This document shows positions 12,396 to 32,320 of a stretch of DNA of 64,000 nt, piece by piece (within the stretch, counting starts at the first letter, position 1; each line of letters begins with the position of its first letter). The DNA lies in IMG/VR virus record IMGVR_UViG_3300008448_009590; one strand, given 5' to 3'. A program made the position numbers and the translations under genes. This DNA is from an uncultured virus (IMG/VR IMGVR_UViG_3300008448_009590) (taxonomy: Duplodnaviria > Heunggongvirae > Uroviricota > Caudoviricetes). The notes beneath the pieces are model-generated. The model saw only the letters and a list, made by a program, of their open reading frames with translations. It ran no database searches and was not told the origin of the DNA.

Positions 12396-12398
12396 ATA
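12391..12398 (+). promoter_or_regulatory. Late promoter-like motif GATAAATA
   Basis: TAAATA core 5 nt before the gp8 ATG. Confidence 0.45.
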
Positions 12399-12403
12399 AG
12401 TCT

Positions 12404-16700: not shown

Positions 16701-19700
16701 TACAGAAAATGTAAAAGATGTTCGTGTAGATTTCCAAAATAATCGTAGATTTACCATGAGGGACATTGGTGCGTTTGAAAATAGAATTAAAGGATTGGAA
16801 TATTATGTCTCTTTAAATTCTTTAGAAAAAAATGCTAATGATTCTAAAATATTAGATGCTAATGGACTCGAAAGATCAAAATATGGAATTTTAGTTGACA
16901 ATTTTACTTCAACTAGCGTTCAAGCTAATTATGGTGATGTAGGTTTTGATAATAGAAATAAAGTAGAAGATGGAGAATTAAAGCCAGCTTCTTTAATGAG
17001 TACGACTAAACTCCTATGGTCGGAAAGTACTTCTTCTGGTAGTTATAAGGTTGTGGGTACAAATACTCAAAAATCTTTGATTATGAATTATACTTCCACA
17101 AAATTTGCCGATCAACCATATGCAACTAAAACTATTCCTATTGCTAGTGCTCTTTATGGTAATTTTAATGGAACGTTAAAACTTTTCCCAGAGTTTACGA
17201 GTGACCATGATACTAGTGTTACAGCTAAAGTTACTTTAAACTCGGTTCAAGGATTAGAAGATGCCTTTAATTTCGTTGATGATAGATTAAATTACGTAGC
17301 TGAACAGAATCCAACTTGGCTAAGTGACAAAGATAGTCCTTTTGCAAAAGTTCCAGATTCTTCTTGGTTTGAAACAAAAACCACAGTTGAAAATAAGACA
17401 GTACAAATTAATAGAAATACAAATGGTAATTTACAAACCACTACTGATCAAGTTTATGTTAAAACAGGAGCAACATTAAGTGCAGATCAGATTGGTGTGT
17501 CAACATCAAAACAGGATTTAGGATCTTATATTACAGACACAGCAATAAATCCTTTCTTAAAACCTAGAGGTATAGTTTTTATAGGATCTTCTTTAAGACC
17601 TAAAACGAGATTTTATTCGTATTTTGATGGCACATTAGTTGATAACTACACTATCGTTCCATCAAAAGTTACTTTAACTCAGAATACTCCATTTAAATCT
17701 GGAGAAATGGTTTTAATTGCCAATACAAATGCTGAATTATCAACTCATATAGATAATTATGCTTTAGATACTGGAATATACCATTTAGGTGTTTGTGCCG
17801 TTTCTGAAGTGGGATCAGCTAATGTTTCTATAGTAAATGAAAGTAGTTTGTCATTGAGTGGAAAATATGTATATGGTCTAGATTCGAAAGAAACTAAAAT
17901 TATTAGTTCAGTATTAGATCATCGTTGTGGAAATACAAAATCGGTAACATCCAGTACAATTACATTAGCTGCAGATGCTCCAAGTGTAGACATTACTGGC
18001 AACACAGTAAGTTTGGTTAGAATTCAAACTACTGACGCTGATGTAAATCCTGCAACTGGAATTGGTTCCACTTACACAATTACTGCTTATAATACTACTA
18101 CTAAAGTAGCTACAGTATCAGGAACAATACCTTCCTCCGAAGTAGGAAAAACATTTTCTTATAGTATAGGAACGAATGTTTCAAATAAAGCTGGCCAAAT
18201 TGGTGGAATATTTTATCCACCACAAGCCACTTTCTTAAGTGGAGAAAGAGTTTATAGATTAACGGAGTCTTTCAATAACTCTTATGATAAAGATGCAATT
18301 TCTTTTGCCGATAAAAATTTTGTATCATCAGGTATAACAACAACAAAAACTTCTTTAGTTGATACCGTATACAATATTGGAATAAGTAATCAAATTGTAG
18401 GAACTGTTACTTCACCATTGTTACAATCGACAACAGTTACAAGTACAATAACAAGCACTTGGAGAGTCGATCCATTAGCACAAACATTTTTTGTGGATGA
18501 ACAAACTTACCCACATGGATTGTATTTGGAGAGTGTAAATTTATTCTTTAGTGCTAAGGATGATGAAAACCTTCCAGTCAGAGTGCAAATTAGACCTACA
18601 GTAAATGGTACACCTTCTTTTGATTATTGGTATCCTGAATCTGTAGTTGAAAAATATCCTAGTGAAATAATTGTCTCAAACACACCTAGTATTAATGATA
18701 GTGCTACCAAAAATGTTTTTACTTTTAGTTCACCAGTATTTTTAAAACCAGGATTATATGCTGTTGTTATATTAACTGATTCTCCAGATTATGTTGTTTG
18801 GACAGCAGAAAAGGGACAAACAACATTAACTAATCAAACTGTTTCTGTTAACCCTTATGTTGGCACTTTGTATAAATCACAAAATGCTATGGAATATGTT
18901 CCATATCTAAATGAAGATTTAATGTTTGAATTGAATCGTTGTGTTTTCAATACAAGTTCTGCAACATTTTTATTACAGAGTGAGAAACAAGATTCAAAAA
19001 TTTATATTGATAGATTTAGATTGTTGGAGAAGTCTATTACAACACAATCTAGTTCTCCAATATCAATTTCTTACTCAGTTATTACTAAACCAGTAAATTC
19101 ATCGAAAGAAACAATTTATAGAAATATAACACCGTCTACAATTTATAGTATGGGAGATGACACCTTCTATTCTATAGGTAATAGAAGAAAAGAGTTACTA
19201 GATAAAAATGATTTTACAGTAAGATTAGAAATTTCAACTTCAAACGATGCTGTGACTCCTTTAGTTTCTTTAGAGAGTTTATATGTAAATACTTGGGAAA
19301 ACTTTATTGATAATGGTGAAATTAATCCTGAAGATTTTAATATTATTGTAGCTGGTGCAAAGTACTCAAATGCTAATGTGCTTACTGTTATTTCTTCCAC
19401 AGGAGAAGGCGCAAATGTTGAAATAGTTGTAAATAATAGTACAGATGGAAATGTGGTTCGAATGAATGTCGCTTCATCTGGTATAGGATATGTTGATGAC
19501 TTTTATATTTCATATCCACATACATCAAACAGTTCAACTGTAACAGCTAATGCCTCTATTGTATTAAATAGTGAATTTGATAGTTCTGGTGGACCATGTT
19601 TGGCGAGATATATTACTAAACCTATTATTTTGACAGACGGATTTGATGCTGGTGATTTGAGGGTATTCTTATCTGCCAATAAACCTGTTGGAACAGAAAT

Positions 19701-19995
19701 TCATGTTTTCTATAAAATTTTATCTAGTTCTGATATTATAAGTTTTTCCGATAGACCTTATGGTAAATTTGAATGTTTGAATCCTAGTGTTAGTGGCGCA
19801 ATAGATGAAACTGAATTTAGAGAATATGAATACCGACCTTCTCTAACAAGTGACGAATTGACTTACACTTCTGATGCTGGAGTTATTTACGACACATTCA
19901 AAACATTTGCAATAAAGATTGTTATGACTTCGCGTGATCCTTCGGTAATACCGAGGGTTAAAGATTTAAGAATAATTGCTTTGCCAGCAGGATAA
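13756..19995 (+). CDS. Large virion structural protein (VrlC / DUF4815-like)
   Basis: PYNDDFDEDKNFMRVLFRPG..LQARELTQLQTIL, APGA.R, ARRTFDESGNY.V, DPLAQTF, C-terminal PRVKDLRIIAL, typical of the large protein following gp8 in environmental T4-like phages. Confidence 0.78.
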   Translation: MTKLFNYDPYNDDFDEDKNFMRVLFRPGYSLQARELTQLQTILSNQIEKFGNHIFKNGSPITGGKISLDDRAYYLILKGQYSGQDIVLENFLDKTIVSYNSSKVIRAKVIAIDNSTIFPILIVKYLSGDFFAEGDELKVYGQNIFAELEDANATGRSYVASIQEGVYYFKGQFVKVSPQFLVLETYYRLGLNTETINKQPSYRIGIEFDELVIDEIDDVSLLDPAQGSFNYQAPGATRFKINTILSKRTLDSADESSFFEVIRIVDGVKTKEIDYPIYNEIDKTLARRTFDESGNYTVDPFVISLEEEYVDTSNNNYVDPNYFTASLDPGKAYVGGYEVQTIAPTKLQVSRGRATASINDYDLPTNYSSYVHVANVYGTLVISNFELLDIHCANHASVSVASTTEYNSSKIGTVRANMIKYNKSSNPDLGTTHQFTVNLFDANTSSITGSVASSGSTNTVIVLPSSFAQLPANSYLGMFFSIKDGAGLNLAPVRIKESSGSSKTITLSSALPFVPSSNAFSIDSDFKFAESLIKRSGSKIFGADITDDSKTNDDNKYAFITEPNRQGLIFDVPFDAIKEDTITNFDFFARKVYSDKTSSGSGIITLAPEGTDTFAFAGTPGTLSDSVILDNIICFIRPDTSGGIPSIAPNTVLSLANNEYTVSAISSTEIRVNFDPTNTGLFGGIRADFIVTTKVNNAENGSTGAIRSKVLYPLSVSKHEKVAYMIDTTTGLTSLNTGTTTAFSGGYVFPELGVTYFDNETGAGDAGTVKKLKTPGVPVSLQVPDVLEIVKIIDSRTITGNITTAMLTDPLYDVTNRYEFDNGQRKTHYDHATIKLKRGFSSPVGSSIYVMYNYLSHGSAPSPQNDGLFTVDSYLNETSDITYATISKFVDKSTGKILSGRASFDFRPTRGIAQNTLSGAVCPDPDEIAEVSFENYLSRVDKVVVKPSKEMAIIEGQSAVKPLIPPHDITDMLLYTLYIPPYTENVKDVRVDFQNNRRFTMRDIGAFENRIKGLEYYVSLNSLEKNANDSKILDANGLERSKYGILVDNFTSTSVQANYGDVGFDNRNKVEDGELKPASLMSTTKLLWSESTSSGSYKVVGTNTQKSLIMNYTSTKFADQPYATKTIPIASALYGNFNGTLKLFPEFTSDHDTSVTAKVTLNSVQGLEDAFNFVDDRLNYVAEQNPTWLSDKDSPFAKVPDSSWFETKTTVENKTVQINRNTNGNLQTTTDQVYVKTGATLSADQIGVSTSKQDLGSYITDTAINPFLKPRGIVFIGSSLRPKTRFYSYFDGTLVDNYTIVPSKVTLTQNTPFKSGEMVLIANTNAELSTHIDNYALDTGIYHLGVCAVSEVGSANVSIVNESSLSLSGKYVYGLDSKETKIISSVLDHRCGNTKSVTSSTITLAADAPSVDITGNTVSLVRIQTTDADVNPATGIGSTYTITAYNTTTKVATVSGTIPSSEVGKTFSYSIGTNVSNKAGQIGGIFYPPQATFLSGERVYRLTESFNNSYDKDAISFADKNFVSSGITTTKTSLVDTVYNIGISNQIVGTVTSPLLQSTTVTSTITSTWRVDPLAQTFFVDEQTYPHGLYLESVNLFFSAKDDENLPVRVQIRPTVNGTPSFDYWYPESVVEKYPSEIIVSNTPSINDSATKNVFTFSSPVFLKPGLYAVVILTDSPDYVVWTAEKGQTTLTNQTVSVNPYVGTLYKSQNAMEYVPYLNEDLMFELNRCVFNTSSATFLLQSEKQDSKIYIDRFRLLEKSITTQSSSPISISYSVITKPVNSSKETIYRNITPSTIYSMGDDTFYSIGNRRKELLDKNDFTVRLEISTSNDAVTPLVSLESLYVNTWENFIDNGEINPEDFNIIVAGAKYSNANVLTVISSTGEGANVEIVVNNSTDGNVVRMNVASSGIGYVDDFYISYPHTSNSSTVTANASIVLNSEFDSSGGPCLARYITKPIILTDGFDAGDLRVFLSANKPVGTEIHVFYKILSSSDIISFSDRPYGKFECLNPSVSGAIDETEFREYEYRPSLTSDELTYTSDAGVIYDTFKTFAIKIVMTSRDPSVIPRVKDLRIIALPAG

Positions 19996-19998
19996 TAT

Positions 19999-20238
19999 AT
20001 GAAAGAAAATCTTTTAAAAGTAGAAGGCGATTTATTCGTAAAAGATAGGAAAAATGGTGCCATTTTGGCTGTAAATAAAAATATACTCATACAAAATGAA
20101 GCTAGAAAAAAAATGGGTAAAAAAATGAGCAGTAATGACACTGAGATAAATAACTTAAAATCTAAAATAGAAGAATTATCTAACGATATGACCGAAATCA
20201 AATCGTTGTTAAAAACTTTGATTCAAAAGAAGGATTAA
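19999..20238 (+). CDS. Small coiled-coil hypothetical protein
   Basis: KVEG..LFVKDRKNGAIL followed by a heptad tail EINNLKSKIEELSNDMTEIKSLL; in operon. Confidence 0.7.
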   Translation: MKENLLKVEGDLFVKDRKNGAILAVNKNILIQNEARKKMGKKMSSNDTEINNLKSKIEELSNDMTEIKSLLKTLIQKKD

Positions 20239-20247
20239 TAATTAGAG

Positions 20248-23200
20248 ATGCCTACTTCACTAATACCAATTATTGCCAGAACTAACACTATCGATGAGTG
20301 GAGAATTCAAACTAATAAATCTGCTACAGATTTAAATGATCTTGGATTCTACACCTACGATAAAGCTCAAGGCACATTACTACTCTCGGGTACCTCCCTA
20401 TTAAGTATAACAGCTGAAGGAACACCGTTACAAGTAGCTAACAATGTTTTATTTCAAAGTAGTTTGACTCTTGGTAATACTCTTTTCTTAGGCATTCAAT
20501 CTTCAGCAACTGGTAATATTATTGCTGGTGGAACAATATCAGTTAGGGGTCCAGGACAATCTCTAAACGTGGCGAATAGTGTTTACGTGGGTAGAGACCT
20601 GCAAATTGTTCAAAATGTTTATACCAGTAATGTTATTGTAAATACTGACATAACCATAGCAAATAATTTAACTGTAACAACAGGAAAATTACGATTGAAT
20701 GGATCTGGAAATGTATCCTATATTAATACAGGTTCTTCTTTTACTAAAACGCTATATTCCGATCAAGTATATTCAACAAATGTAAGCACTGCAAACCTAT
20801 ATGCTTTATATGCTAAAGTTGATGTTTTAGATGATTTGTCTTTTGCTAGAATTATTACTTTAGATAATACTACTACAAATTCTCATATATTAAAAACTAA
20901 TGCCGCTACTTCAAATTTTTTAACAACTAAAAATTTAATAGCCAATGTAACAGCGAACATTGTAAATTTAGAATCGAATGTTGCTGTAATTAACGTAGCA
21001 ACAATAATTGATGGTAATGTAGTATCTCTAGTTTCAAACAATTCTACAATAAACATTTCTACCGTAAATACTTCTACGATATTGACTGGTAATGTAGTTT
21101 CATTAGTTTCAAACAATTCTATTTTAAATAATTCCACTGTAAATACATCTACGGTGTTGGTTGGTAATGTAGTAACACTTACTTCAAATAGTTCTACTAT
21201 AAATGTTGCTAGTATCAATTTAGCTTCGATTAATACTTTAACGACATGGAATATAACTTCCACAAATAGAATTACAGGAAATAGTATTGTAACAAATAAT
21301 ATCGTTTCTTCTACAATTAATACATCTATTTTAAATGTCACATCAAACTTATGGATGAGTACTGGTTCTTTAACAAGAATTTTTGCACCGAATGATCAGC
21401 ACGAATCTTTGACTGTTGATGGTAAAACTACTTTAAGAACTGCATTAATTACTAGTAATTTAACTGTTGAAGGAACTTGGACAGCTCTAGGTGATATTGA
21501 GTATGAAGTTGGTGAAATAATTTTAAATAAGAGAACACCAACAAACGCTGAAGCGACATTTAGAAATGAAAGACCTATAGGTGATGATGCGTTAATTAGA
21601 TGGAATGAAGCTGATGATAGATGGACTATTTCGAGAGGAAATACATATTCTTCCCTCTATGGAATTTTGGATGATAGTTTCTTAAGTTCATCAATAAACA
21701 GCACAAGTACTTCAAATGTTGCAACTTCTTTAGCTGTGAATACAGCCCATTTTGTTGCACAGACTTCGGGTATGTACGCTAACTCAGCATTTGCCGCACA
21801 GAATACAACAGGTAGTTATGCTAACTCAGCTTATGCTCAAGCAAATTTAGCATTTACCGCGGGAGGTGTTATAGCTGGAAGTTATGCCAATTCGGCTTAT
21901 CATACAGCTAATAGTGGATCATCATATGCGAATTCAGCTTTCACCCATGCAAATTCATCATTCATTCAAGCCAACACACCATCGCATGTAGCAAATTCTG
22001 CAGCACTTTATGCAAATGGTGCGTTCTTAAGGGCAAATACACCAACACATGTTGCAAACTCCGCGTCACTTTATGCCAATGCGGCTTTCTCTAAAGCCAA
22101 TACAGTTGCTACTGATTTAAATGACGTTGCTATTTCTACGGCTACAGCTGTACATACTTCAAGTTCTGCATCATTATATGCTAATGGAGCTTTCGCTAAA
22201 GCTAATAATTCTTCAGACGCTGTAGCTTTAGATAAAGCTACTTCTGGATCTGCATATGCTAACTCTGCATTTGCAGCAGCTAATAATGCTGTGCAGAAAG
22301 TTGCTCCTACACAGACGATTACTGGTGATCTTACTATAACCCGTAGATTAAATACTGCAAATCTTCAATTTGACGGAGATAGTGCTAGATATTTTGGTTC
22401 CAATTTTGTATTTAATTCGGATTTAAATCCAAATACATCTCCAGGTGAAAATGCTGCTATACAAGTTTATCGAGGAACTAATGCCTCTCCTGCTACATTC
22501 CAATGGAATGAAACATTAGATAAGTGGCAATTTGAAGATGGTGTAAATGGTTTACATAATTTGGAAGAATTTGCCAATAAAGCAAATAATATTACTGGTG
22601 GTGCAACTAATAAAATTCCATATCAAACAAACACTAGTGCAACACAATTCATTGATGCTCCTGCTGTTGCTAATCGTTTCTTAAAGTGGACAGGAACCGA
22701 GTTTACTTGGGCGGATGTTCCTGCTGCTGATTTAAATAATTTAAATGCTACCAATTTAACTTCTGGTACTGTGCCGAGTGGTAGACTAACCGGTACTTAT
22801 AGTATAAACATCAATGGAACAGCATCATCAGCATGTACTGCAACTACTGCTAGTTCGGCAACTAGTGCTACAAATGCTACAAATGTTATTGATGGTGGAA
22901 CTGTTCACACAAACACTATAAGATGTGATGATTTTGCAAATTTCTATTCGAACGTATTTTTTAGAAGTGGTGGAACAACAACGTCTAGAACTGACCCAAG
23001 TAATTTAGCTGCTTTAAAAGTTACTGGTGATGTTGCTGTTTCTAATGAAGTTTGGGCACTTCAGTTTCAAGGTGTCGCAGTGCGAGCCCTTTACGCTGAC
23101 TTGGCTGAAAAATATTTGTCCGATAAAAAATATCCTACAGGTACCATAATGATGGTTGGTGGCAAAAAAGAAGTTACTGCAGCAAAAGACACCAAAAAAC

Positions 23201-23460
23201 ACGCTATCATCGGAATCGTATCGGAGAAACCAGCATACGTAATGAATAATGACTTGAAAAATGGTTTAATAGTTGGACTTAAAGGTCGATTACCTGTTAG
23301 AATAATTGGTACTTGTGAAAAGGGTGATTTAATTACTGTATCTGAAAAGTCTGGTGTAGGTATTTCTATAAAAGAAAATGTAATTTTACCATTTAGAATT
23401 ATTGCTTTAGAAAATAAAGAAACTGAAGAAGAAGGTTTAATAGAAGTAGTTATTATGTAA
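20248..23460 (+). CDS. Tail fibre protein with C-terminal chaperone/autocleavage-like domain
   Basis: N-terminal TNTIDEWRIQTN, beta-rich repeats, YANSAF repeats, C-terminal YADLAEKY..IGIVSEKPAYVMN..VGLKGRLPVRIIG..KGDLI. Confidence 0.75.
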   Translation: MPTSLIPIIARTNTIDEWRIQTNKSATDLNDLGFYTYDKAQGTLLLSGTSLLSITAEGTPLQVANNVLFQSSLTLGNTLFLGIQSSATGNIIAGGTISVRGPGQSLNVANSVYVGRDLQIVQNVYTSNVIVNTDITIANNLTVTTGKLRLNGSGNVSYINTGSSFTKTLYSDQVYSTNVSTANLYALYAKVDVLDDLSFARIITLDNTTTNSHILKTNAATSNFLTTKNLIANVTANIVNLESNVAVINVATIIDGNVVSLVSNNSTINISTVNTSTILTGNVVSLVSNNSILNNSTVNTSTVLVGNVVTLTSNSSTINVASINLASINTLTTWNITSTNRITGNSIVTNNIVSSTINTSILNVTSNLWMSTGSLTRIFAPNDQHESLTVDGKTTLRTALITSNLTVEGTWTALGDIEYEVGEIILNKRTPTNAEATFRNERPIGDDALIRWNEADDRWTISRGNTYSSLYGILDDSFLSSSINSTSTSNVATSLAVNTAHFVAQTSGMYANSAFAAQNTTGSYANSAYAQANLAFTAGGVIAGSYANSAYHTANSGSSYANSAFTHANSSFIQANTPSHVANSAALYANGAFLRANTPTHVANSASLYANAAFSKANTVATDLNDVAISTATAVHTSSSASLYANGAFAKANNSSDAVALDKATSGSAYANSAFAAANNAVQKVAPTQTITGDLTITRRLNTANLQFDGDSARYFGSNFVFNSDLNPNTSPGENAAIQVYRGTNASPATFQWNETLDKWQFEDGVNGLHNLEEFANKANNITGGATNKIPYQTNTSATQFIDAPAVANRFLKWTGTEFTWADVPAADLNNLNATNLTSGTVPSGRLTGTYSININGTASSACTATTASSATSATNATNVIDGGTVHTNTIRCDDFANFYSNVFFRSGGTTTSRTDPSNLAALKVTGDVAVSNEVWALQFQGVAVRALYADLAEKYLSDKKYPTGTIMMVGGKKEVTAAKDTKKHAIIGIVSEKPAYVMNNDLKNGLIVGLKGRLPVRIIGTCEKGDLITVSEKSGVGISIKENVILPFRIIALENKETEEEGLIEVVIM
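21013..21237 (+). repeat. Three degenerate 75-bp (25-aa) tandem repeats in the fibre gene
   Basis: GGTAATGTAGT recurs at 21013, 21088 and 21163 (GNVVSLVSNNS..N.STVNTST). Confidence 0.8.
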
Positions 23461-23463
23461 ATT

Positions 23464-24198
23464 ATGATTGGAATTATTGGTTATGGAATGGTTGGACAAG
23501 CCGTTGAATACGGCTTTTCCAAAACCCAAGTTTTCGTTTGTGATCCGAAATATAATCACGTAACGGTCAAAGGCCTCTGTTTATTAAATCCAGAGGCAAT
23601 ATTCGTTTGTGTCCCCACACCAACAGACGATACTAATTATTCATTGGTTACTTCAGTATTGAATGAAATTTTCGAGATGAACTATCAGGGAATAGTTATA
23701 GTAAAGTCCACAATTTTGCCGCAATATCTTGAAAAATATGATATTGTGTATAACCCAGAATTTCTATCAAGATCAACCTCGAAAGAAGATTTTGTAAATC
23801 CACACTTATTAATACTTTCTGGTAAAAAATCTCAACAGGCTTTGGAACTTTATAAAAAACATTCTACCGTAGATACTGAAAATATTTTTGTAACAGATAT
23901 TAATACAGCATCATTTATAAAATACACCATGAATTCCTTTTATGCAACTAAGGTAACTTTTATGAACTCTATGTATGAGGTTGCTAAAAAAATGGGTGTC
24001 GATTATAATGAAGCTATAACTGTTCTCTCTAAACATCCATGGATGGGATCCAATCATTTCAAAGTACCTGGTCCTGATGGTAAAAAAGGATTTGGTGGGC
24101 CTTGTTTACCAAAAGACACAGAGTGTTTAGTTAAAAATTATGATGTTGAAATACTTAAAAAAGTTTTGGAATTAAATCAAAAGTTTAGAAATGAATAA
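23464..24198 (+). CDS. ugd: UDP-glucose/GDP-mannose dehydrogenase family protein, short form
   Basis: GIIGYGMVG, FVCVPTP, IVKST, YNPEFL, KY..NSFYATKV.F.N, catalytic GFGGPCLPKD. Confidence 0.88.
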   Translation: MIGIIGYGMVGQAVEYGFSKTQVFVCDPKYNHVTVKGLCLLNPEAIFVCVPTPTDDTNYSLVTSVLNEIFEMNYQGIVIVKSTILPQYLEKYDIVYNPEFLSRSTSKEDFVNPHLLILSGKKSQQALELYKKHSTVDTENIFVTDINTASFIKYTMNSFYATKVTFMNSMYEVAKKMGVDYNEAITVLSKHPWMGSNHFKVPGPDGKKGFGGPCLPKDTECLVKNYDVEILKKVLELNQKFRNE

Positions 24199-24203
24199 GT
24201 TTG

Positions 24204-24253
24204 TTGAACAGTTTTGTCAAACACTATATATTAGTACGTCTTTGGTTTAAATA
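24204..24253 (+). promoter_or_regulatory. Putative promoter region for the radical SAM operon (sigma70-like and late-like motifs)
   Basis: TTGAAC (24204-24209), 17-nt spacer, TATATT (24227-24232); TTTAAATA at 24246-24253; SD AGGAG before ATG 24267. Confidence 0.4.
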
Positions 24254-24266
24254 AAAAGGAGAAAAA

Positions 24267-25373
24267 ATGGTAGTAGATATAAACGTAACAAGTATCTGCA
24301 ATTTAGCTTGCACATATTGTTCCGAAGGTTTTGAATGTGGACTATCTACCGAGTTTGAAGAAAATACTTCTTTGACATTAGATAATGTTGAAGAATTTAT
24401 GGCTAAAATTTCTGATCCCAAAAAAGATGTTTATTTCTGGGGTGGTGAACCATTTGTTAATTGGGATTTTTGTAAAGGTGTCATAGAAAAATTTAAACAT
24501 GATCCTGGTTTTTCTTTTTTCTTTTATACAAATGGAACGTATTTAAAGAGATATTTAAAAGATTTGGTTAGAATTCACAATGAGATTCCCGGTAGATTAA
24601 AGTTGCAGGTTTCATATGATGGAAAGCCTGTAAACGACATCGCCAGAGTGACTAAATCTGGTACTCCATCGTCAGCAATGGTCAAAGCAAACTATATTGC
24701 AGCTAAAGAAGCTGGATTGAATGTTTCACTGAAATCTGTACTAACGTCTGAAAATTTCCACTTAATCTATGAAGCCTTTTTGGATGTCATAGAAATGGAT
24801 AAAAATTATTTTCCAACACCAGATTTATACAGCCAATTGACAGAAGAAGAATTTATGCCTAAATTGGAAGTATTAAAGGATGGATTGAAGAAAATTGCTA
24901 AACATATTTACGAAAATAAATTACCTCCTGAGAAGTTTGGATGGTTCCAACAATCTAGAGCTCTATGTGCAGCAGGTATAAATTACGTAAGTGTTGATTT
25001 AAACGGCGATTTGAGTCCTTGCCATGGATGCATGTACAAAGAATCGCATTCACATAAATTAGGAAATATTTTTAAAGTTGCAGATTTGGATCAGTTGATT
25101 GAAGAAAAATCTCAAATGTATAAGGATGCGTTGAAGAATCAACCTTTAGATTGTATGAACTGTGACAGTCAATTCTGTATGAAATGTAATGCGGCAACTT
25201 ATGAAAAATCAGAAAAAGAAACATATCTAGAAAAATGGAGTGATCATACAGCAAATTGGCAAGTCTGTAAAGTATTTAAGACAAACGAGATAGTACATCA
25301 CGCATTAAGAACTGCACTAAAGAGTTATAAAAAGCCTGTAATTAAAATTCAGGCTGAACAGTGTACAGTATAA
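24267..25373 (+). CDS. Radical SAM enzyme 1 with SPASM-type C-terminus
   Basis: CNLACTYC, FWGGEPF, YTNG, VSYDG; C-terminal CAAG..PCHGC..CMNCDSQFCMKC..C. Confidence 0.92.
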   Translation: MVVDINVTSICNLACTYCSEGFECGLSTEFEENTSLTLDNVEEFMAKISDPKKDVYFWGGEPFVNWDFCKGVIEKFKHDPGFSFFFYTNGTYLKRYLKDLVRIHNEIPGRLKLQVSYDGKPVNDIARVTKSGTPSSAMVKANYIAAKEAGLNVSLKSVLTSENFHLIYEAFLDVIEMDKNYFPTPDLYSQLTEEEFMPKLEVLKDGLKKIAKHIYENKLPPEKFGWFQQSRALCAAGINYVSVDLNGDLSPCHGCMYKESHSHKLGNIFKVADLDQLIEEKSQMYKDALKNQPLDCMNCDSQFCMKCNAATYEKSEKETYLEKWSDHTANWQVCKVFKTNEIVHHALRTALKSYKKPVIKIQAEQCTV

Positions 25374-25382
25374 GGATAATAA

Positions 25383-26507
25383 ATGTTTACATTAGAAGTA
25401 AGTGTTACTGAAAAGTGTAATCTAGGTTGTCCGTATTGTTATGTGGCAAACAGACCAACTTGGATGACGAAAGAAGTTTTTGATCAGGGTATGAAAGACC
25501 TGCCAAAATTAATGCAAAGGTCCGGTGATAAAGATTATCATGTAAGTTTTTTTGGTGGTGAACCTTTATTAAATTGGGACCTAATAACTCACGCTGTTCC
25601 TTATTTAAGATCGGATGATAAATGTAAAGGTATTAATATCATCACAAATTTAACGATGATTGATCAAGATAAAGCTAATTATTTGAGAAATAATGGTGTT
25701 GGCGTTTCTTGGTCTTTTGATGGTATGAGTTCTAATGAGAGTAGACCTTTACTTCCACTTTTGGAAAATACTAATCCAGAAACAGGCGAATTGTTTGATG
25801 GTATACTTTCGATGTATGAATATAAGAAAGATATCATAAAGAATTTGACAAACGGATGTAAGGTCATGATATGGCCAGGAAATACAAAAGACATGAAAGA
25901 GAATTTTGAATTTCTCTTAGATTGGGGTATAGATCATCCCGATTTTAGTATTGTTCGTGATGATGTTTGGACAGAAGATGATATAATACAGTTTAGATAT
26001 GAATGTGAAAGACTTGCAGATTTTTGGATAGAAAAGATAAAATCTGGTAAACCATGTTCAGTAGGATTTTTAAAACTAGCTATTTTAGATATTCTCTATG
26101 GTTTAGTGAAAGGTAAAAGACCTTTTGGTTGTTTTGCTGGAACTAATGGTGGAGTATTGATGAGTTCTGGGGAATTCTACCCTTGCGCTAGGTTTGCATC
26201 CAAAAAAATTATGAAAATGGATGAACAGTATAATTTTAGGTACTATCAAGACATTTTTAATCCAAAAAATTATGATAAATGTGAACCGTGTGATTTGAAA
26301 CAGGTGTGTAATGCCGGTTGTACATATTCTCAAATTATGAATGATAATAAACCATTAGATAGTATTTGTGAATTGTTCCACATATATTATGAACAAGCAA
26401 TGCGAGTGGTAGATGAGTGTAAAGACGAAAGAGTTTTCCAAGATTTGGTTTTAAATTATATCGAAAATGTTGGTGTTGAAAATGAAGGTGTGGAGTGTAG
26501 GAACTAA
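25383..26507 (+). CDS. Radical SAM enzyme 2 with SPASM domain
   Basis: CNLGCPYC, FFGGEPLL, SFDG; CFAG..GEFYPC..CEPCDLKQVCNAGC..C. Confidence 0.93.
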   Translation: MFTLEVSVTEKCNLGCPYCYVANRPTWMTKEVFDQGMKDLPKLMQRSGDKDYHVSFFGGEPLLNWDLITHAVPYLRSDDKCKGINIITNLTMIDQDKANYLRNNGVGVSWSFDGMSSNESRPLLPLLENTNPETGELFDGILSMYEYKKDIIKNLTNGCKVMIWPGNTKDMKENFEFLLDWGIDHPDFSIVRDDVWTEDDIIQFRYECERLADFWIEKIKSGKPCSVGFLKLAILDILYGLVKGKRPFGCFAGTNGGVLMSSGEFYPCARFASKKIMKMDEQYNFRYYQDIFNPKNYDKCEPCDLKQVCNAGCTYSQIMNDNKPLDSICELFHIYYEQAMRVVDECKDERVFQDLVLNYIENVGVENEGVECRN

Positions 26508-26508
26508 C

Positions 26509-27357
26509 ATGAAAATTGTTTCTTGCACCAGTCAAGATAAAATTCTTAGAATTAACTGGCATATATTAAATTGGTGTAATTTAAAATGTTCCTACTGTAA
26601 TGTAAAGGAACATTTGAGTTATGATTATAATGATAATACTCAAATTTCAAATAATTATAAATTGATTATAAGTAGATTAAAAACTATTTCTAAACCTTTT
26701 GAGATTTGTTTGACTGGTGGGGAACCAACATTACATCCCAATATCGAAGATATATTAAGTGGATTAAATGAAATTGAAAATTTAACTAAAATTTATTTTT
26801 TTACTAACTTAACTAGATCAGAAAATTTTTATAAAAATATAAAAAGTTTTTCGAAAGTTACATATTACGCATCCTTTCACCCCGAATATCACAAAGAAGA
26901 TTTTTTAGATAAGTGTAAAAATCTAAACTGTGAGGTTCATATAAGTATGATGCCTGAATATAAAAATTACATTTTAAAAATTATTGATAAGTGTAAGTTG
27001 GAGGATATAAAATTTACATTAAATTTTTTAAGAGACACAAAATATTATTCAAGTAATTTAGAAGAAGATTTTTTCGTAGAAGCTTCTACTGCTGAATCTA
27101 TGATTGATATGGATGTTTTATATGATAATGGCTTTCGAGAAAATACTACAAATTTAAGATTATTATACGATAAAAAAAATAATTTCAAAGGCTATAAATG
27201 TTTACCGGAATCTTTTCAAATAGAATTAAATAATGTAGTTAAAAATGTTTGCACTAACGAAATTATGCCATTATCTTTAAAAGATATTACGAAAAAGGTT
27301 ATTTGTCCAAAAGAAGTTTGTGAAGGTGGACTTATGATGTATCCTAAGGAAATTTAA
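26509..27357 (+). CDS. Radical SAM enzyme 3 (short, Cys-containing C-terminus)
   Basis: CNLKCSYC, LTGGEPTLHP, FTN, ASFHPE; FKGYKC..C..CPKEVC. Start set at ATG 26509, just after the upstream stop. Confidence 0.9.
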   Translation: MKIVSCTSQDKILRINWHILNWCNLKCSYCNVKEHLSYDYNDNTQISNNYKLIISRLKTISKPFEICLTGGEPTLHPNIEDILSGLNEIENLTKIYFFTNLTRSENFYKNIKSFSKVTYYASFHPEYHKEDFLDKCKNLNCEVHISMMPEYKNYILKIIDKCKLEDIKFTLNFLRDTKYYSSNLEEDFFVEASTAESMIDMDVLYDNGFRENTTNLRLLYDKKNNFKGYKCLPESFQIELNNVVKNVCTNEIMPLSLKDITKKVICPKEVCEGGLMMYPKEI

Positions 27358-27686
27358 TGAAGAAAAATTTTAAAAGTATTGTATCTATACCTATTAAAGT
27401 TGAGATGCAACCAGTTGAACATCAAAGCAATAAAGTTTTGACTGTTGATGATTTGTCGAAACAAATAGAAGAAGCTAAAAAGGGAAAAGCCAAAGTCGAT
27501 AGTAAGTATGTAGGATTTGAACTGACTGAGAGAGGACATTTATTCGAATATAAATTTGATTATGTTAAATTTTTGGACAATATGTCATTCATAATCAAAA
27601 CGGCAAAACAGCGTAAAGAAATGAATCCTAATAATGTCTATACAATGGATAAAACTAAAAGTGCTAGACGAAAAAAAGAAATATGA
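27357..27686 (+). CDS. Hypothetical protein
   Basis: 109-aa basic ORF coupled at both ends (TAATG and ATGA overlaps). Confidence 0.65.
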   Translation: MKKNFKSIVSIPIKVEMQPVEHQSNKVLTVDDLSKQIEEAKKGKAKVDSKYVGFELTERGHLFEYKFDYVKFLDNMSFIIKTAKQRKEMNPNNVYTMDKTKSARRKKEI

Positions 27687-28576
27687 ACGCCGAAACTTTC
27701 AAAAAAAAGTATCCTCAAATAAATTTTTATGTAGGACATGAAACGGATAAAACTGTAACTAAAGATTCGGGAGTAAATGTATTATATTTCACAAATAAAT
27801 GTAATTTAGCTTGTACATATTGTTATGAAGATTTGCCTGGTCGCCCTCCACAAATTTTGTCTAAAGAAGATATTAAAAAAAGTATCGATAGAGTTATAGA
27901 AAGAGAAGATCCCAATAGTCAAACATTATTTGTTCTTTTTGGTGGAGAAGCTACTATGGAATGGGATAATGTTTGTTATGCCATGAATTATGCCTATACA
28001 AAAAAGAAAAATGTTCATTTTAATTTAAACACAAATGGCATAAGATACCTAAAACAAAGTTTTATAGAGGAAACAAAAAACAATTTTTTTTATAAAAAAA
28101 ACTTGTTAAGTATAGACGTTAGTTTTGACGGTATAGGAAATTCGGATAGAGTCACACACGGCGGCAAGGATTCAACTAATTTAATGATCCAAGTTTTCAG
28201 AAATTTGAGAAAAAACGCAATGAAATTTAGGATAAGATACACCATACATCACAAAAACGTTCATAATTGCTATGAAGATATGTCCAATATTATTAGATAT
28301 TTTAAACCAACCCGTCTTATAACATCCGTTGCGTGGGAAACTCTCAATAAAATTCAAATTGACTTGCTCCAAAACATGAAAGAAAGTCTCAGGAAAGATT
28401 GGATAAATAGGATAATTGATGTTCCAGTTTGTGAGTTATTTTGTGACATGTGTGATGGATGTGGTGAGAGAAAGGAAGTAAAAACTTATTTTACTGACGA
28501 GGGTAATGTAACCACATATGGTAATTATGAGAACTCCCCGAAATTTCATGATTTTAAAGAAAAGGTAATAATATGA
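27683..28576 (+). CDS. Radical SAM enzyme 4
   Basis: CNLACTYCYE, LFGGEA, NTNG, VSFDG; C-terminal CELFCDMCDGC. Confidence 0.9.
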   Translation: MNAETFKKKYPQINFYVGHETDKTVTKDSGVNVLYFTNKCNLACTYCYEDLPGRPPQILSKEDIKKSIDRVIEREDPNSQTLFVLFGGEATMEWDNVCYAMNYAYTKKKNVHFNLNTNGIRYLKQSFIEETKNNFFYKKNLLSIDVSFDGIGNSDRVTHGGKDSTNLMIQVFRNLRKNAMKFRIRYTIHHKNVHNCYEDMSNIIRYFKPTRLITSVAWETLNKIQIDLLQNMKESLRKDWINRIIDVPVCELFCDMCDGCGERKEVKTYFTDEGNVTTYGNYENSPKFHDFKEKVII

Positions 28577-28965
28577 GCACTGATAGAGAAATTGTAATTG
28601 AAAAGTTAACGAGTATTTCACAAAATATTAAAGAGATATCGGAATATGATGAAGGCCTCGCCAACTTAATTTGGATAGGTTTTGACACAGCTATGAGTTT
28701 AGCACAATCTATTTCTGAAAATAATGAGAAAAAGGAACAAATTGATATTTCTGTTTACATTCAACAAATTTGTGATGCTTTGGGTGTTGATATTGAACAA
28801 ATGGTTTTATCAATTATTCAAAATAACAATACTCAAGAATCTAGTAATAAAGAGCCGGACTTGGAAACTTTAGACTTTATAACATCCGATCTTGATGACT
28901 ATGAAAAGTTTTTAGCAAAAAGTTCAGCAAAAAATAATTTAGATTTTTTATCAAAGGAAATATAA
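28573..28965 (+). CDS. Acidic helical hypothetical protein
   Basis: 130-aa ORF, ATGA-coupled to radical SAM 4 and ending 1 nt before the Cys-repeat gene. Confidence 0.65.
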   Translation: MSTDREIVIEKLTSISQNIKEISEYDEGLANLIWIGFDTAMSLAQSISENNEKKEQIDISVYIQQICDALGVDIEQMVLSIIQNNNTQESSNKEPDLETLDFITSDLDDYEKFLAKSSAKNNLDFLSKEI

Positions 28966-28966
28966 G

Positions 28967-29575
28967 ATGGCTTTAGGTAAAATGTTTGACACTACTCTTG
29001 GAGTAGGTACTAACACAACTCCTGCTGGTGAACATAAAAGGCTATCAATAACTATACAAGGAACTGTTGGTAGTAATGCAGTGAATTATGATCTTGCGAA
29101 TGTTGTAGCTGGAGAGGATTTAATAACTAGATCGTTTTTTCAATCGCTGCTTGATAAAGCAAAAGAAGAAAATACGAGAAGGGGAGGCAGCGCCACTAAA
29201 GGTTCGTTATCAACAACAAACATTAGAGCTGCCGACTTTAATAATATCCGAGCACTTTTTGCTGTTGCCGATTCTAGGACAAATCAAGTTTATAATGATT
29301 GGTCTGGTGCAAATGCTAATTTGCCTAATGGTCCGACAGTAAATAGTCCCACAATAACAACCTTTCCTACTACTGCTGCACCAACTGGTGTTCCAGCAGC
29401 AGTTACCACAGATCCAGCAACTCAAATTAGAGCTACAATTCTGAATTCTCTCATTAATGCTTTGAATTCTGCTGGGCAAGTTTGCACCTGTAATTGTAAT
29501 TATTGTACTTGTAATTGCAATTATTGTACATGTAACTGTAATTACGCATGTACCTGCAACTGTAATTACTCCTAA
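28967..29575 (+). CDS. Cys-rich repeat protein; candidate radical SAM substrate (RiPP-like precursor)
   Basis: SD AAGGA; 172-aa Cys-free T/A/N/G-rich N-terminus, then CTCNCNY x3, A, CTCNCNY, S, stop. The ORF is solid; the function is inferred from context. Confidence 0.75.
   Translation: MALGKMFDTTLGVGTNTTPAGEHKRLSITIQGTVGSNAVNYDLANVVAGEDLITRSFFQSLLDKAKEENTRRGGSATKGSLSTTNIRAADFNNIRALFAVADSRTNQVYNDWSGANANLPNGPTVNSPTITTFPTTAAPTGVPAAVTTDPATQIRATILNSLINALNSAGQVCTCNCNYCTCNCNYCTCNCNYACTCNCNYS
29483..29569 (+). repeat. Four 21-bp coding repeats encoding CTCNCNY
   Basis: tgcacctgtaattgtaattat / tgtacttgtaattgcaattat / tgtacatgtaactgtaattac / gca / tgtacctgcaactgtaattac; all differences between units are synonymous. 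Confidence 0.95.
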
Positions 29576-29586
29576 TTAAAAATATT

Positions 29587-30048
29587 ATGTTTTTTCAACT
29601 AAATCATTTAGAAGAAACCAATATGTCTTACATAAGACATTTTAATCATGGAATAAGATTGGGATCTTGGTTATTTTTGTGTTCCATCATTTTTTTAATT
29701 TATTGTCTTTTCTCTTTAAAATTTTTAGAAAACTTTGTGATAGCACGAATAAACACAATGTATCATGGATTAATGTTGCGATGGTTTGAAGATGAAACAT
29801 TTAATCGTGGAAAACCAGAAAAAGATGTTTTAGAAGAAAAGAAATATAAAAAGCAGTATGTAAAATTGATCGAAGATGGAATGATAAATCCTTTCAATAA
29901 AGTTAAAATATTTAATGGACTGTTAATTGCATCCATTACTAGTATAACACATTCTTTTATACCACAAATATTTGTGCATCATGCTGCCACCAATGTAATA
30001 AGATTATATTTTAATTATAAAATAATGGAGAAATTAAATGAAAAATGA
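29587..30048 (+). CDS. Hypothetical protein with hydrophobic segments (DUF6356-like, possibly duplicated)
   Basis: HLEETNMSYIRHF followed by a hydrophobic helix; second half LIASITSITHSFIPQIF..AAT resembles the same family, from memory. Confidence 0.45.
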   Translation: MFFQLNHLEETNMSYIRHFNHGIRLGSWLFLCSIIFLIYCLFSLKFLENFVIARINTMYHGLMLRWFEDETFNRGKPEKDVLEEKKYKKQYVKLIEDGMINPFNKVKIFNGLLIASITSITHSFIPQIFVHHAATNVIRLYFNYKIMEKLNEK

Positions 30049-30442
30049 TAGAGTTGAAATTGAAGGTATTGATGCGAATACTTATGCTGGAAAAGCAATT
30101 AATGCATGTAAGTTAAAAGCAAGAGGAATTTTTGGAGATGAACTTTTAACTTTTAAACTTTTGGATTTTGTAAGTTTTTTAATGTTAAATAATGAATTTA
30201 CGTCAAAAGGTTATTTTATTAGTGAACATAATAGGGAAGAAATTTATATAAAAATTATAGAAACTGGTGATATACAATTAATAAATGATTTGGAAAAATA
30301 TATTAATCTTAGAGATTCTATAAAAGAATTACAAAGAAAAAAAGATGAATTTTACGATATTATTGAAAAATTAAATAATTTATCAAACTTGAATGATGAA
30401 ACGAGTGTTAATGAAATTGTAGAGTCTTATCTAAGGAGATAA
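30038..30442 (+). CDS. Hypothetical protein
   Basis: 134-aa helical ORF with SD GGAG, in operon. Confidence 0.65.
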   Translation: MKNDRVEIEGIDANTYAGKAINACKLKARGIFGDELLTFKLLDFVSFLMLNNEFTSKGYFISEHNREEIYIKIIETGDIQLINDLEKYINLRDSIKELQRKKDEFYDIIEKLNNLSNLNDETSVNEIVESYLRR

Positions 30443-30444
30443 AT

Positions 30445-31437
30445 TTGATAACCTTAATAAATGGACCTAAAAGTATACATTTAAGATATATTGCTAGAAG
30501 TATTTTAGATTCTGAAAAGATATGGAATTTTGAAGATTATACTGTAAAATATAAAAATGATGGATTCATAATTTTCGATTCAGAAGGAACAAATATATAT
30601 TGCAATAACTCGGAATTGGGTAATATAAACAATGATCTTTTAATAATGACCGAAGGTCAGAAAACTTATCTATTGGAAGAAATAGATAAGTTTAGTCACG
30701 ACATTAATGAAAAAATTGTAGAACATCATTTCATAGATTCTTGGCCTACAACAAGTATAGATAATTTATTCAGTGAAGAATGTTTTTTGGAAAATTATGA
30801 ATCTTTAGAATATGAAATGGAGTATCAAAAACTTTTAGATGACTTGAAGGATGATAGTATAACTAACATATGGACTGGAAGATTTTCTGCTTCTTGTATA
30901 AAAACCCTAAGGGAAAAGTTAGGAACAGAAAATGTAAGAGTTATAAACTTTTTCAGGAATCCTAGTGCTTGCATTTTTGGCAATCAATTAGATCCTGATT
31001 GTCAGTTAAAAAATGGATTAATTTCTATTTTAAATATGGTAATGGTTAAAAATTTACCAAATACCTTTAATATTAGATATGAAGATTTTTTAACCAATAA
31101 AAATTTTCATCTAAATGAAAATCAGATAGATTTTCCGGAAAAAATTGTAAATTATAATGGTATTATTAGTCTTTATGAAAAAGAAAACTATAGATTAGAA
31201 TTAATAAATGAAAATTTGATGGATCAGTTAAATCAAAACTTTTTGGATTTTGACTTGATAAAAAATTTAAAAATTGGAATGAGACCAAATAATTATAAAG
31301 ATTATGAAGGTTTTGAAAAATATATGACGTTATTAGAAAATAATTTAAATTTAGAAATTGCGAATAATATTCCAAAAAACTTTTTTGAATTTTTAGGTTA
31401 TACTCCATTAACAGTGGAACAAATTATCACCGGTTAA
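30445..31437 (+). CDS. Hypothetical protein, possible sulfotransferase-like fold
   Basis: TTG start after AAGGAG; VINFFRNP and IRYEDF resemble sulfotransferase motifs, but the N-terminal PAPS loop (LINGPKS) is degenerate. Confidence 0.35.
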   Translation: MITLINGPKSIHLRYIARSILDSEKIWNFEDYTVKYKNDGFIIFDSEGTNIYCNNSELGNINNDLLIMTEGQKTYLLEEIDKFSHDINEKIVEHHFIDSWPTTSIDNLFSEECFLENYESLEYEMEYQKLLDDLKDDSITNIWTGRFSASCIKTLREKLGTENVRVINFFRNPSACIFGNQLDPDCQLKNGLISILNMVMVKNLPNTFNIRYEDFLTNKNFHLNENQIDFPEKIVNYNGIISLYEKENYRLELINENLMDQLNQNFLDFDLIKNLKIGMRPNNYKDYEGFEKYMTLLENNLNLEIANNIPKNFFEFLGYTPLTVEQIITG

Positions 31438-31441
31438 TTCT

Positions 31442-32320
31442 GTGTCTTTAGTAAATCTGAGAAACTATGATTTAGTTATAACTACTTCATTTGGTTTCAA
31501 ATTTGGAATTTGTGGTCATTTATTTGAAATGATTGAATATTATTGGGCTATAAAAAATTGGACAAATCTAAATCCTTGTATACTATTGTCCGATGGTACT
31601 ACAATAGACGAATTTAATATAGCTTTAAACACGAAATATGATAATCTAGTTGTTGAAAATTTAATATACCATCCTTTTCCAAAACTATTATTGTCAAAAA
31701 ATTTATTGATAGTTGACGGATCTTCAAGACTTGATAATTCGGAAATATATACAGATAATTTTTTTCTATTCAGATGTCATGAAAAAAATTATGACTTTTA
31801 TATAAACAATAAAGCGCAATGTCACTTATTTCAAGATTTTGAAATATATGATGATATTCCTAAAAAAATAAATGTTTTTGATTATAAGAAAAAATTATTA
31901 TATTCAAAATTTAAAAAAATAAATGATGATGTAGAAAATTCTGTAATGTTTTATTTGACAGATGTTAGTAGATTTATGTCTGAAGAAACAATAACTGAAA
32001 TTTCCAATAAATATTCTTTCAACAACACAGTAGTATTTACAAATAAACCAGAACTTTATACAAAAATAAAAACATATAAAGTTCCAGTCCCAGACATGTG
32101 GAATAAATTTTCTACATATGTTTATACTAAATTACCTGGCAAAAAAGATTGTTCCAATAGATTTATTTTAGAGTGTATGCACTATGATAAAGAAGTTGTT
32201 TATGATATAGATTATTATGATAAAGCTTTAGAAATTAGAAAAAAGGATGGAATAAAAAATACATCTTTAGAACAAGGTGATTTTTTTATCAATTATATCA
32301 ATGAACAAATTAAGTGTTAA
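31442..32320 (+). CDS. Hypothetical protein, possible GT-B glycosyltransferase-like
   Basis: GTG start; C-terminal DCSNRFILECMHYDKEVVY loosely resembles the GT-B donor-binding motif. Confidence 0.35.
   Translation: MSLVNLRNYDLVITTSFGFKFGICGHLFEMIEYYWAIKNWTNLNPCILLSDGTTIDEFNIALNTKYDNLVVENLIYHPFPKLLLSKNLLIVDGSSRLDNSEIYTDNFFLFRCHEKNYDFYINNKAQCHLFQDFEIYDDIPKKINVFDYKKKLLYSKFKKINDDVENSVMFYLTDVSRFMSEETITEISNKYSFNNTVVFTNKPELYTKIKTYKVPVPDMWNKFSTYVYTKLPGKKDCSNRFILECMHYDKEVVYDIDYYDKALEIRKKDGIKNTSLEQGDFFINYINEQIKC

Follow-up and report, generated by a model that had tools for sequence, protein, structure and literature searches.

The 64,000-nt stretch of DNA examined here (the window) belongs to a 72.7-kb record of an uncultured tailed virus (IMG/VR IMGVR_UViG_3300008448_009590) which is about 42% complete. 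On its plus strand, at 28967-29575, it encodes a 202-aa protein, P0001, in which an N-terminal domain of about 170 aa is followed by a tail of cysteine-rich heptads. Upstream of this gene and on the same strand, four open reading frames (ORFs) starting at 24267, 25383, 26467 and 27683 match Pfam Radical_SAM, the radical S-adenosylmethionine (rSAM) enzymes, with two small ORFs (27357-27686 and 28573-28965) interleaved among them; this agrees with an earlier interpretation made from the letters alone (the sequence-only reading), which had placed the heptad gene after four rSAM genes and proposed its product as a modified precursor. Translation also bore out the tail that it had described. The chain ends in AGQV-CTCNCNY-CTCNCNY-CTCNCNY-A-CTCNCNY-S, and the 12 cysteines, all within the last 30 residues, lie in the four identical heptads and single Ala spacer of residues 173-201 (29483-29569, +), the proposed modification site; there is no Cys outside this block. 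Below, P-numbers designate heptad proteins and L-numbers the loci or contigs that were fetched.

When we compared the four 21-nt units with one another (six pairwise comparisons), we found 22 codon differences, 22 of them synonymous and none non-synonymous. When the block was compared with 11 orthologous ones of other phages, synonymous differences affected 9-20 of the 29 codons and non-synonymous ones 0-4, the latter partly at the one-residue spacer. Divergence of the units at synonymous sites only points to strong purifying selection on the heptad peptide, and recent replication slippage as the source of the repeats is thus ruled out, as the sequence-only reading had argued. The DNA of the block also matches a repeat in Campylobacter phage genes.

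P0001 matched no Pfam or NCBIfam family, and a tblastn search of it against phage GenBank gave no match, to which the low-complexity filter may have contributed. An AlphaFold2 monomer model built from an 81-sequence alignment had a mean predicted local distance difference test score (pLDDT) of 75; residues 40-170 mostly exceeded 80, with a minimum of 60 at residues 111-120. The N-terminal 170 aa or so are thus confidently predicted to form a folded domain. Compared with BFVD, the model of this domain gave a best E of 0.15, to uncharacterized Myoviridae proteins, and compared with VIA a best Z of 6.5, which is within noise.

The heptad family in phages

A protein search with P0001 returned 554 homologs at E<=1e-3, and a block of four heptads with 12 Cys was present in nearly all of the 120 that were listed. 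Our census, drawn from database homologs and the proteins of the fetched loci, comprised 169 unique proteins with 866 heptads. The search pattern fixes C1, C3 and C5, which are accordingly 100% conserved, and limits position 7 to Y/F/H/W/N/Q, among which Y7 accounts for 90%; T2 is found in 83% of heptads and N6 in 95%, while position 4 is N in 76%, D in 18% and Q in 4%. Two C-x-x-N registers are therefore contained in each heptad, C1 to N4 and C3 to N6. The number of heptads per protein ranges from 4 to 28 and is mostly 4, the 28 heptads amounting to 90 Cys in 346 aa. The smallest member noted, in L020, has 125 aa and consists almost only of repeats, and 33 longer forms span 355-851 aa, one of which (P0142) carries a Gly_rich_2 domain. 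The N-terminal parts vary yet have an E-x-x-R-R-G helix motif in common, its E68 and R71 being invariant in the 81-sequence alignment. Campylobacter group II phages possess a member of 534/535 aa (CPt10_1891), in which the repeat is annotated just as a 'repeat region'.

We also scanned one genome per species for 185,579 prokaryote species with a degenerate two-heptad pattern. The motif occurred on three contigs, all of them short contigs of metagenome-assembled genomes (MAGs), one with T4-type capsid genes and two with a phage-type rSAM cassette directly upstream. Judging from these scans the heptad family is almost exclusively phage-borne, and a cellular, non-phage origin was rejected because the motif was confined to these three MAG contigs.

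Two loci harbor tandem heptad paralogs, four in L010 (8045-10609) and three in L012 (9501-11558), with differing N-terminal domains and identical heptad blocks, an arrangement that resembles exchangeable fiber cassettes. Divergent members in L011, L020, L021, L022, L029, L030 and L146 begin with a second Cys/His repeat grammar, M-A-C-x-x-H-T-N..C..H.., of up to about 40 residues, which may be a metal-binding or a second modification site.

Linkage to radical SAM enzymes

For the detection of rSAM genes we used a hidden Markov model (HMM) built from the eight rSAM enzymes of the window. All 34 loci found with P0001 contained rSAM genes. A scan of viral contig DNA for the motif only, which is independent of the N-terminal domain, yielded 39 distinct contigs, 36 of them with an rSAM gene within 8 kb of the heptad gene and 33 with a same-strand rSAM gene no farther than 1.5 kb away. 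As for the three exceptions, one contig begins at the heptad gene and two are copies of one phage, with little sequence downstream of the heptad gene. A motif scan of metagenomes gave at least 131 stretches, from which 73 distinct contigs were analyzed and a heptad ORF was called in 70. Among the matches listed, the locus included an rSAM gene in 56 of these 70, always with the nearest one on the same strand, and the 14 contigs without one all had a flank shorter than 1.5 kb; where both flanks measured at least 1.5 kb an rSAM gene was present in 32 of 32 contigs, and in 25 of 25 where they measured at least 3 kb. In contrast, 76 control loci (630 kb) around a gp6-like baseplate gene of related phages, searched with the identical HMM, held neither an rSAM gene (0/76) nor a heptad ORF (0/76). 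The sequence-only reading had named homologs commonly lacking rSAM neighbors as the observation that would speak against it, and this is not what these counts show.

The linkage was also seen from the side of the enzymes. A profile made from 11 orthologs of the enzyme at 25383 led to 69 viral loci, of which 58 had a full-length ortholog (33-100% identity) and 11 had distant or partial rSAM matches only. A heptad gene was present in 51 of the 58 (47 with the strict pattern and four with variant motifs) and in none of the 11. Among the seven full-length loci without it, one has a 71-aa remnant in the exact slot, three are cut by a contig end and three are records of Campylobacter phages that have the heptad gene elsewhere in the genome. 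The heptad gene mostly lies downstream of the enzymes but is upstream of them in L062, L065-67 and L069, and the flanking genes differ as well; since order and flanking genes vary between lineages, the linkage is not just inherited synteny. Heptad genes and core enzymes are thus linked in both directions across deeply divergent phages. In L045, which is otherwise colinear with L046/L047, the heptad gene has shrunk to a 71-aa ORF (10665-10880) in an unchanged slot, either through natural deletion or through assembly collapse at the repeat.

The core that recurs in divergent loci consists of orthologs of the enzymes at 25383, 27683 and 24267, an ORF like that at 27357, one to four heptad genes and a homolog of the gene at 30038. 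The three enzymes kept with heptad genes in distant phages are exactly those which the sequence-only reading had singled out as radical SAM 1, 2 and 4. Enzyme 1 (24267-25373, +; Pfam Radical_SAM 8.8e-16, SPASM 2.7e-4) has a CxxxCxxC motif at residue 11 and a SPASM domain with a variant second half; its best NCBIfam match is the PapB-family ranthipeptide maturase (5.1e-22, 78.5 bits vs a cut-off of 340), and in divergent loci its ortholog immediately precedes the heptad gene. Enzyme 2 (25383-26507, +; PF04055 3.7e-12), with CxxxCxxC at residue 12, has the full 7-Cys SPASM motif for two auxiliary clusters (C250-x13-G-x4-C268, C300xxC303x5C309x3C313 and C329, all invariant in 11 orthologs) and matches the PapB family at 2.4e-38 with 132.2 bits, again vs 340. 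Among solved structures CteB comes nearest to it (5WGG/5WHY; E 6.7e-18, with enzyme residues 7-328 aligned to CteB 102-430). Enzyme 4 (27683-28576, +; Pfam Radical_SAM 3.1e-12), whose orthologs are likewise found in divergent loci, has CxxxCxxC at residue 40 and a C-terminal cluster motif CxxxCxxCxxC (Cys 250/254/257/260), with no full 7-Cys SPASM, and matches the PapB family at 1.9e-22 (79.9 bits vs 340). After PapB, the next NCBIfam matches of the core enzymes are SCIFF, nif11-type and QhpD maturases, all far below the cut-offs; TIGR04463 was not among the 25 best NCBIfam rows for any enzyme. By sequence similarity the three core enzymes come closest to Cys-thioether (ranthipeptide/SCIFF) maturases, and they are not members of the PapB family (NF047865).

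Enzyme 3 (26467-27357, +; Pfam Radical_SAM 4e-11, generic NCBIfam matches only) is lineage-specific and outside the conserved core; its slot is empty of it in L009, L010, L013, L017 and L028 and filled in L033. The small basic ORF between rSAM genes (27357-27686, +, 109 aa) has 22 unique homologs in the fetched loci (jackhmmer) and a widely conserved position, and matched no Pfam, PHROG or NCBIfam family. The small acidic ORF at 28573-28965 (+, 130 aa), start/stop-coupled to its neighbors, has 14 unique homologs in window-like lineages only. Its slot holds an enzyme-1 ortholog in divergent loci, and it had no family match save one weak, chance-level one.

Downstream of the heptad gene, 30038-30442 (+) encodes a 134-aa all-helical partner protein (phrog_25260) with 33 unique homologs, including those of Campylobacter phages, and it usually follows the heptad gene closely in other loci too. 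Its AlphaFold2 model (mean pLDDT 92) has five helices, for which Foldseek gave no match at E<=1e-3 and VIA a best Z of 7.6, and a Pfam scan of 30 partner homologs returned two chance-level single matches only. Positions 30188-30306 share about 75% DNA identity over 119 nt with Campylobacter phages (CP220, CP21, F379 and others), which is unusually high for such distant phages; the matching Campylobacter genes, for example CP21_143 and CPT_0015, are hypothetical. At the other end, the cassette opens in window-like lineages with a 244-aa protein resembling UDP-glucose/GDP-mannose dehydrogenases (23464-24198, +; Pfam UDPG_MGDP_dh 4.2e-18), the ortholog of which is directly upstream of the rSAM genes in L009, L010, L012, L013, L017, L028 and L033. 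The rSAM genes of Campylobacter phage CP220 have as their neighbor CPT_0019, for which a sugar dehydrogenase domain is annotated.

Pfam matches on the plus strand identify T4-type baseplate proteins (gp53, gp25, gp6 and gp8-like) at 1649-13744, a 2079-aa giant ORF with DUF4815 at 13756-19995 and a 1070-aa giant ORF with a Peptidase_G2-type chaperone end at 20248-23460; two further giant ORFs, of 1756 aa (47596-52866, +) and 3128 aa (53215-62601, +), lie farther on. These baseplate and giant-protein matches indicate that the window comes from the part of a T4-like phage genome that encodes tail and baseplate. Its GC content is about 0.3, its long ORFs are all on the plus strand except that at 46113-46757 (minus), and near-identical DNA is present in freshwater metagenomes from 15 studies. 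Between the giant genes, inside the tail-fiber region, lies an island of about 23 kb (23464-46757) with eight rSAM ORFs, the four downstream of the heptad gene starting at 32277, 33948, 34843 and 36415. It also includes a GT2 glycosyltransferase, the UDPG-dehydrogenase-like gene, a 2-oxoglutarate-Fe(II) oxygenase, two tryptophan-halogenase-like genes, two epimerases/dehydratases, PIG-L and polysaccharide deacetylases, and a transketolase of which the N part and the pyrimidine-binding part are separate ORFs; a gene for an IscA-type Fe-S carrier (46660-47010) comes directly after it. The four giant ORFs surround the island, and in several divergent loci the rSAM cassette is closely preceded by homologs of the Peptidase_G2-type end of the 1070-aa ORF. 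Divergent loci also keep together the genes at 31442 and 32277, the second of which encodes an HxsC-like rSAM. Of the T4 late-promoter octamer TATAAATA there is no copy on either strand of the window, where shuffles lead one to expect 15.8 +/- 4.0, which suggests avoidance or another late-promoter motif in this T4-like phage; scans of 19500-31500 for Sigma-70 promoters and terminators gave results at chance level.

The sugar-modifying enzymes of the island, among them GT2 and the UDPG-dehydrogenase-like protein, and the adjoining IscA-type carrier favor an explanation in which the rSAM enzymes act on another substrate of the island, be it a sugar, a nucleotide or a cofactor, and the heptads are an unmodified metal-thiolate, Fe-S or disulfide-rich structural motif. 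The heptads are 43% Cys with CxC spacing, as in metallothioneins, and the tip of the T4 long tail fiber, with its metal-lined trimer axis and His-x-His iron sites, could serve as a model. The rSAM scores are under all family cut-offs, and some heptad proteins lack adjoining rSAM genes (L108, L124/L126). The authors who described the archaeal Cys-repeat protein CrpA likewise suspect metal binding (PMC13692751). However, a metal motif leaves unexplained the near-invariant N6 and Y7 and the N/D/Q at position 4, as well as the two-way linkage with PapB/CteB-like SPASM enzymes in rearranged loci, as opposed to 0/76 in the controls; moreover, the core enzymes stay beside the heptad gene where the sugar genes are absent (L020, L024, L029 and L106). 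We consider this explanation unlikely.

S74 chaperones and the product of the heptad gene

Directly after the last heptad, 124 of the 169 unique proteins carry the motif SD-x3-K. Forty-eight of the 124 run into a long C-terminal domain, some of them with a PF13884 label, and 76 stop after about 12 residues, a remnant of the S74 domain; in 27 of the 169 the chain ends at the heptads, as it does in the window's copy. Many database homologs of P0001 have PF13884 (Peptidase_S74) after the heptads. The S74/ICA domain cleaves just ahead of its catalytic Ser by means of a Ser-x4-Lys dyad corresponding to endosialidase S911/K916, is active only as a trimer and is preceded by a triple beta-helix stalk (PMC8326128). 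P0001 ends in CNYS, one residue past the S74 cleavage point. In L063, a 99-aa ORF that follows the heptad gene (11167-11466) carries PF13884 (E 2.7e-6) and the heptad protein keeps a 12-residue tail, hence the chaperone is split there. The tail of the split form reads SD-x-RLK...Y(M/I/L), 12 residues long. ORFs of 88 aa occupy a like position in L010 (10609-10875) and L012 (11558-11824), that of L010 without a Pfam match.

A few long members (P0144, P0157, P0126, P0132, P0146 and P0149) have a start other than S74 after the heptads. P0144 matches Hint_2 (E 5.7e-6, 27.2 bits vs a cut-off of 28.4) starting 11 residues after the last heptad, and P0157 has a weak Intein_splicing match (0.071). A Hint-domain reading of the P0126 group, made by eye from its 'C-F-L-A-G-T-P-V' start, found no Pfam or PDB sequence support. 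If the Hint-like starts are real, two unrelated self-cleaving domains would be placed at one point after the heptads.

The window's heptad gene sits between baseplate and giant-protein genes, and one related contig has T4-type capsid and baseplate genes. We judge a modified particle protein to be a likelier product than a released peptide, because the N-terminal domain is predicted to be folded, forms of 355-851 aa exist, the S74 domain starts right after the block and the gene is set among phage genes. The virion proteomics of Campylobacter phage IBB_35 lists 38 structural proteins.

A true precursor of a ribosomally made, post-translationally modified peptide (RiPP), from which the leader is removed and a Cys-rich peptide released as toxin, signal or metallophore, would also have a leader-like domain with C-terminal repeats and RiPP-type SPASM maturases, and the 125-aa member of L020 is almost all repeats. 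As a lead only, 19% of the members of one cluster among the Atlas neighbors carry PF27846, a Cxxx-repeat family of rSAM targets. Against this, the genes that divergent loci keep together with the heptad gene were seen to include neither a protease nor an exporter, the first 170 aa are predicted to form a folded domain, and members span 125-851 aa, with many S74 fusions and one Gly_rich_2 fusion; the genes lie in phage structural regions, and the tandem paralogs with varied N-terminal domains (four in L010, three in L012) look like fiber cassettes. We regard such a peptide as quite improbable. Of the precursor idea in the sequence-only reading, the functional link to rSAM enzymes whose nearest families are Cys-thioether maturases was retained, whereas the classical leader-plus-core layout was given up in view of the folded 170 aa, the long forms, the SD-x3-K in 124 of 169 proteins and the phage genes around them.

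As the heptad protein is Cys-rich, is linked to many Fe-S enzymes and has an IscA-type gene in its island, it could also be seen as a helper of the rSAM enzymes, either by giving up its own sulfur or Fe-S sacrificially or by acting as a scaffold for the eight enzymes of the island. But a scaffold would have no reason to be fused to S74, to carry up to 28 repeats or to exist in large multi-domain forms, and the heptad gene is kept where only one to three rSAM genes exist, which makes a helper role very hard to credit. All of these rivals explain the data less well than a cross-linked protein of the fiber type.

In our opinion P0001 is probably a fiber-type phage protein whose Cys heptads are cross-linked by the co-encoded rSAM/SPASM enzymes, and not a small diffusible RiPP. 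The 202-aa protein would be the substrate of the enzymes at 24267, 25383 and 27683, its N-terminal domain presumably serving recognition, assembly or both, and the enzymes would turn the thiols of the heptad cysteines into covalent cross-links, of which thioethers of the ranthionine type to the position 4 (N/D/Q) and N6 side chains are the most plausible. In the S74 forms, the heptads would occupy the place of the stalk; the protein would trimerize, the chaperone would cut itself off before its Ser and the mature chain would end in CTCNCNY. The window's copy, ending in CNYS, would then be a natively 'pre-trimmed' form. The outcome would be a chemically stapled and very stable C-terminal tip or stalk.

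Several observations weigh against this interpretation. With regard to the protein, no Pfam match to S74 was found in P0001 nor across the 72.7-kb record, itself about 42% complete; the tail (residues 177-202) has a pLDDT below 50 in the AlphaFold2 monomer, in which the heptads are unstructured; and the model of the N-terminal domain had no Foldseek match in the PDB at E<=1e-3 and showed no fiber fold. With regard to the enzymes, scores of 78-132 bits vs a cut-off of 340 do not allow the type of reaction to be read from homology. A fused RiPP recognition element (RRE) is absent, the enzymes starting at the cluster motif (position 5-7 of the PapB profile and residue 102 of CteB), and as the alignment of the enzyme at 25383 starts at that CteB residue, the RRE part is missing there. 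No stand-alone RRE was recognized either, the small neighboring ORFs being without family match, though a divergent one may exist. With regard to the linkage, L124/L126 have no rSAM gene in the 8 kb before the heptad gene, 6 kb of which is one giant (2007-aa) gene; the T4-like contig L108 encodes an 832-aa heptad protein amid T4-type structural genes, yet its 12.6 kb are free of rSAM genes; and Campylobacter phages have their nearest rSAM gene 2.2-2.3 kb from the heptad gene, with the 25383-type enzyme elsewhere and the other enzymes and partner genes clustered about 30 kb away (record coordinates). The linkage could also come in part from a pathway with another target that is shared with the wider island, in which sugar and halogenase-like genes and additional rSAM genes lie. 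Lastly, we infer the modification, the virion location and the trimer of family members from sequence.

Since there are three conserved enzymes and three cysteines per heptad, one may speculate about a division of labor. Carried further, several tailed-phage lineages (freshwater and marine T4-like, giant uncultured and Campylobacter group II phages) would possess a dedicated stapling system in which three rSAM/SPASM enzymes, each in charge of one Cys register, build interlocked thioether rings in a fiber stalk or tip that is exposed by S74 or, in some lineages, Hint-like self-cleavage. We put this forward tentatively and with more doubt than confidence.

Known systems and significance

In family and structure the phage enzymes match PapB/PapA (freyrasin) and CteB/CteA (SCIFF) best; these have the same architecture of an rSAM domain with a 7-Cys SPASM, and PapA has repeated Cys motifs that are iteratively modified. 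However, the phage enzymes score far under the PapB cut-off and are without the N-terminal RRE part of CteB, of about 100 residues; in addition, PapA and CteA are peptides of about 45 aa, in contrast to a phage protein of 200-850 aa with three Cys per seven residues. QhpD, which serves the maturation of quinohemoprotein amine dehydrogenase, is likewise an rSAM/SPASM enzyme and makes Cys-to-Asp/Glu thioethers in a protein subunit, QhpC, and its family (TIGR03906) is among the top NCBIfam matches of the phage enzymes (E 3e-14 to 6e-22, far below the cut-off of 453). QhpC, unlike the heptad proteins, is the subunit of a cellular enzyme with few specific cross-links and no repeats.

The S74/ICA proteins, such as endoNF of K1F and MyRF, offer the other comparison. 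Relatives of P0001 have PF13884 and the S-D-x3-K dyad spacing directly after the heptads, whereas the window's own protein is without an S74 domain. We know of no S74 protein reported to have a Cys-repeat stalk or rSAM partners. In the relatives, the heptad block sits where, in S74/ICA proteins, a triple beta-helix stalk precedes the cleavage site (PMC8326128).

The closest parallel in substrate is archaeal. In Methanococcus voltae the SPASM rSAM enzyme CrpC installs ranthionine links on CrpA, a 28.8-kDa Cys-repeat protein, as reported in a 2026 article (PMC13692751, which is also the source of the CrpA and CrpC statements that follow). There, too, the target of a SPASM enzyme is a protein with Cys repeats whose gene adjoins that of the enzyme, as opposed to a short peptide; in CrpA the Cys stands ahead of an amide or acid acceptor, in a C-x-x-Q/D motif with the spacing of the heptad C-x-x-N/D/Q, and engagement relies on a conserved N-terminal part. 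CrpA and CrpC differ from the phage system in being archaeal and cellular, and the article has no 'phage' or 'viral' wording. The repeat of CrpA is a 17-residue motif present ten times, as opposed to the 7-residue CxCxCNY unit, and CrpC has an RRE and belongs to TIGR04463; CrpA and CrpC have no link to fiber chaperones. Our searches of the literature on the heptad motif and on phage, rSAM and thioether topics found no description of a phage module of heptad and rSAM genes. What would be new here, we infer from the sequences, is Cys cross-linking of the rSAM/SPASM type on a fiber-type phage protein with a new heptad motif.

Campylobacter group II phages are rich in rSAM genes and a T4-like marine/environmental genome has 12 of them, as described in two reports (PMC3322345, PMC5332604). 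If the heptads of P0001 and its relatives are indeed cross-linked, this would explain the long-noted abundance of rSAM genes in Campylobacter group II and some marine T4-like phages, and viruses would be using RiPP-type enzymes to harden or functionalize their own particle. The block, with 12 Cys in 29 residues, would also be a compact repeat substrate for the study of iterative SPASM enzymes. The thioether chemistry of rSAM enzymes has so far concerned small peptide natural products, plus one archaeal protein since 2026. If fiber stalks or tips were stapled in the way tentatively put forward above, RiPP-type chemistry would for the first time be seen to build a virus particle, and the covalently cross-linked architecture of the protein would be a new one.

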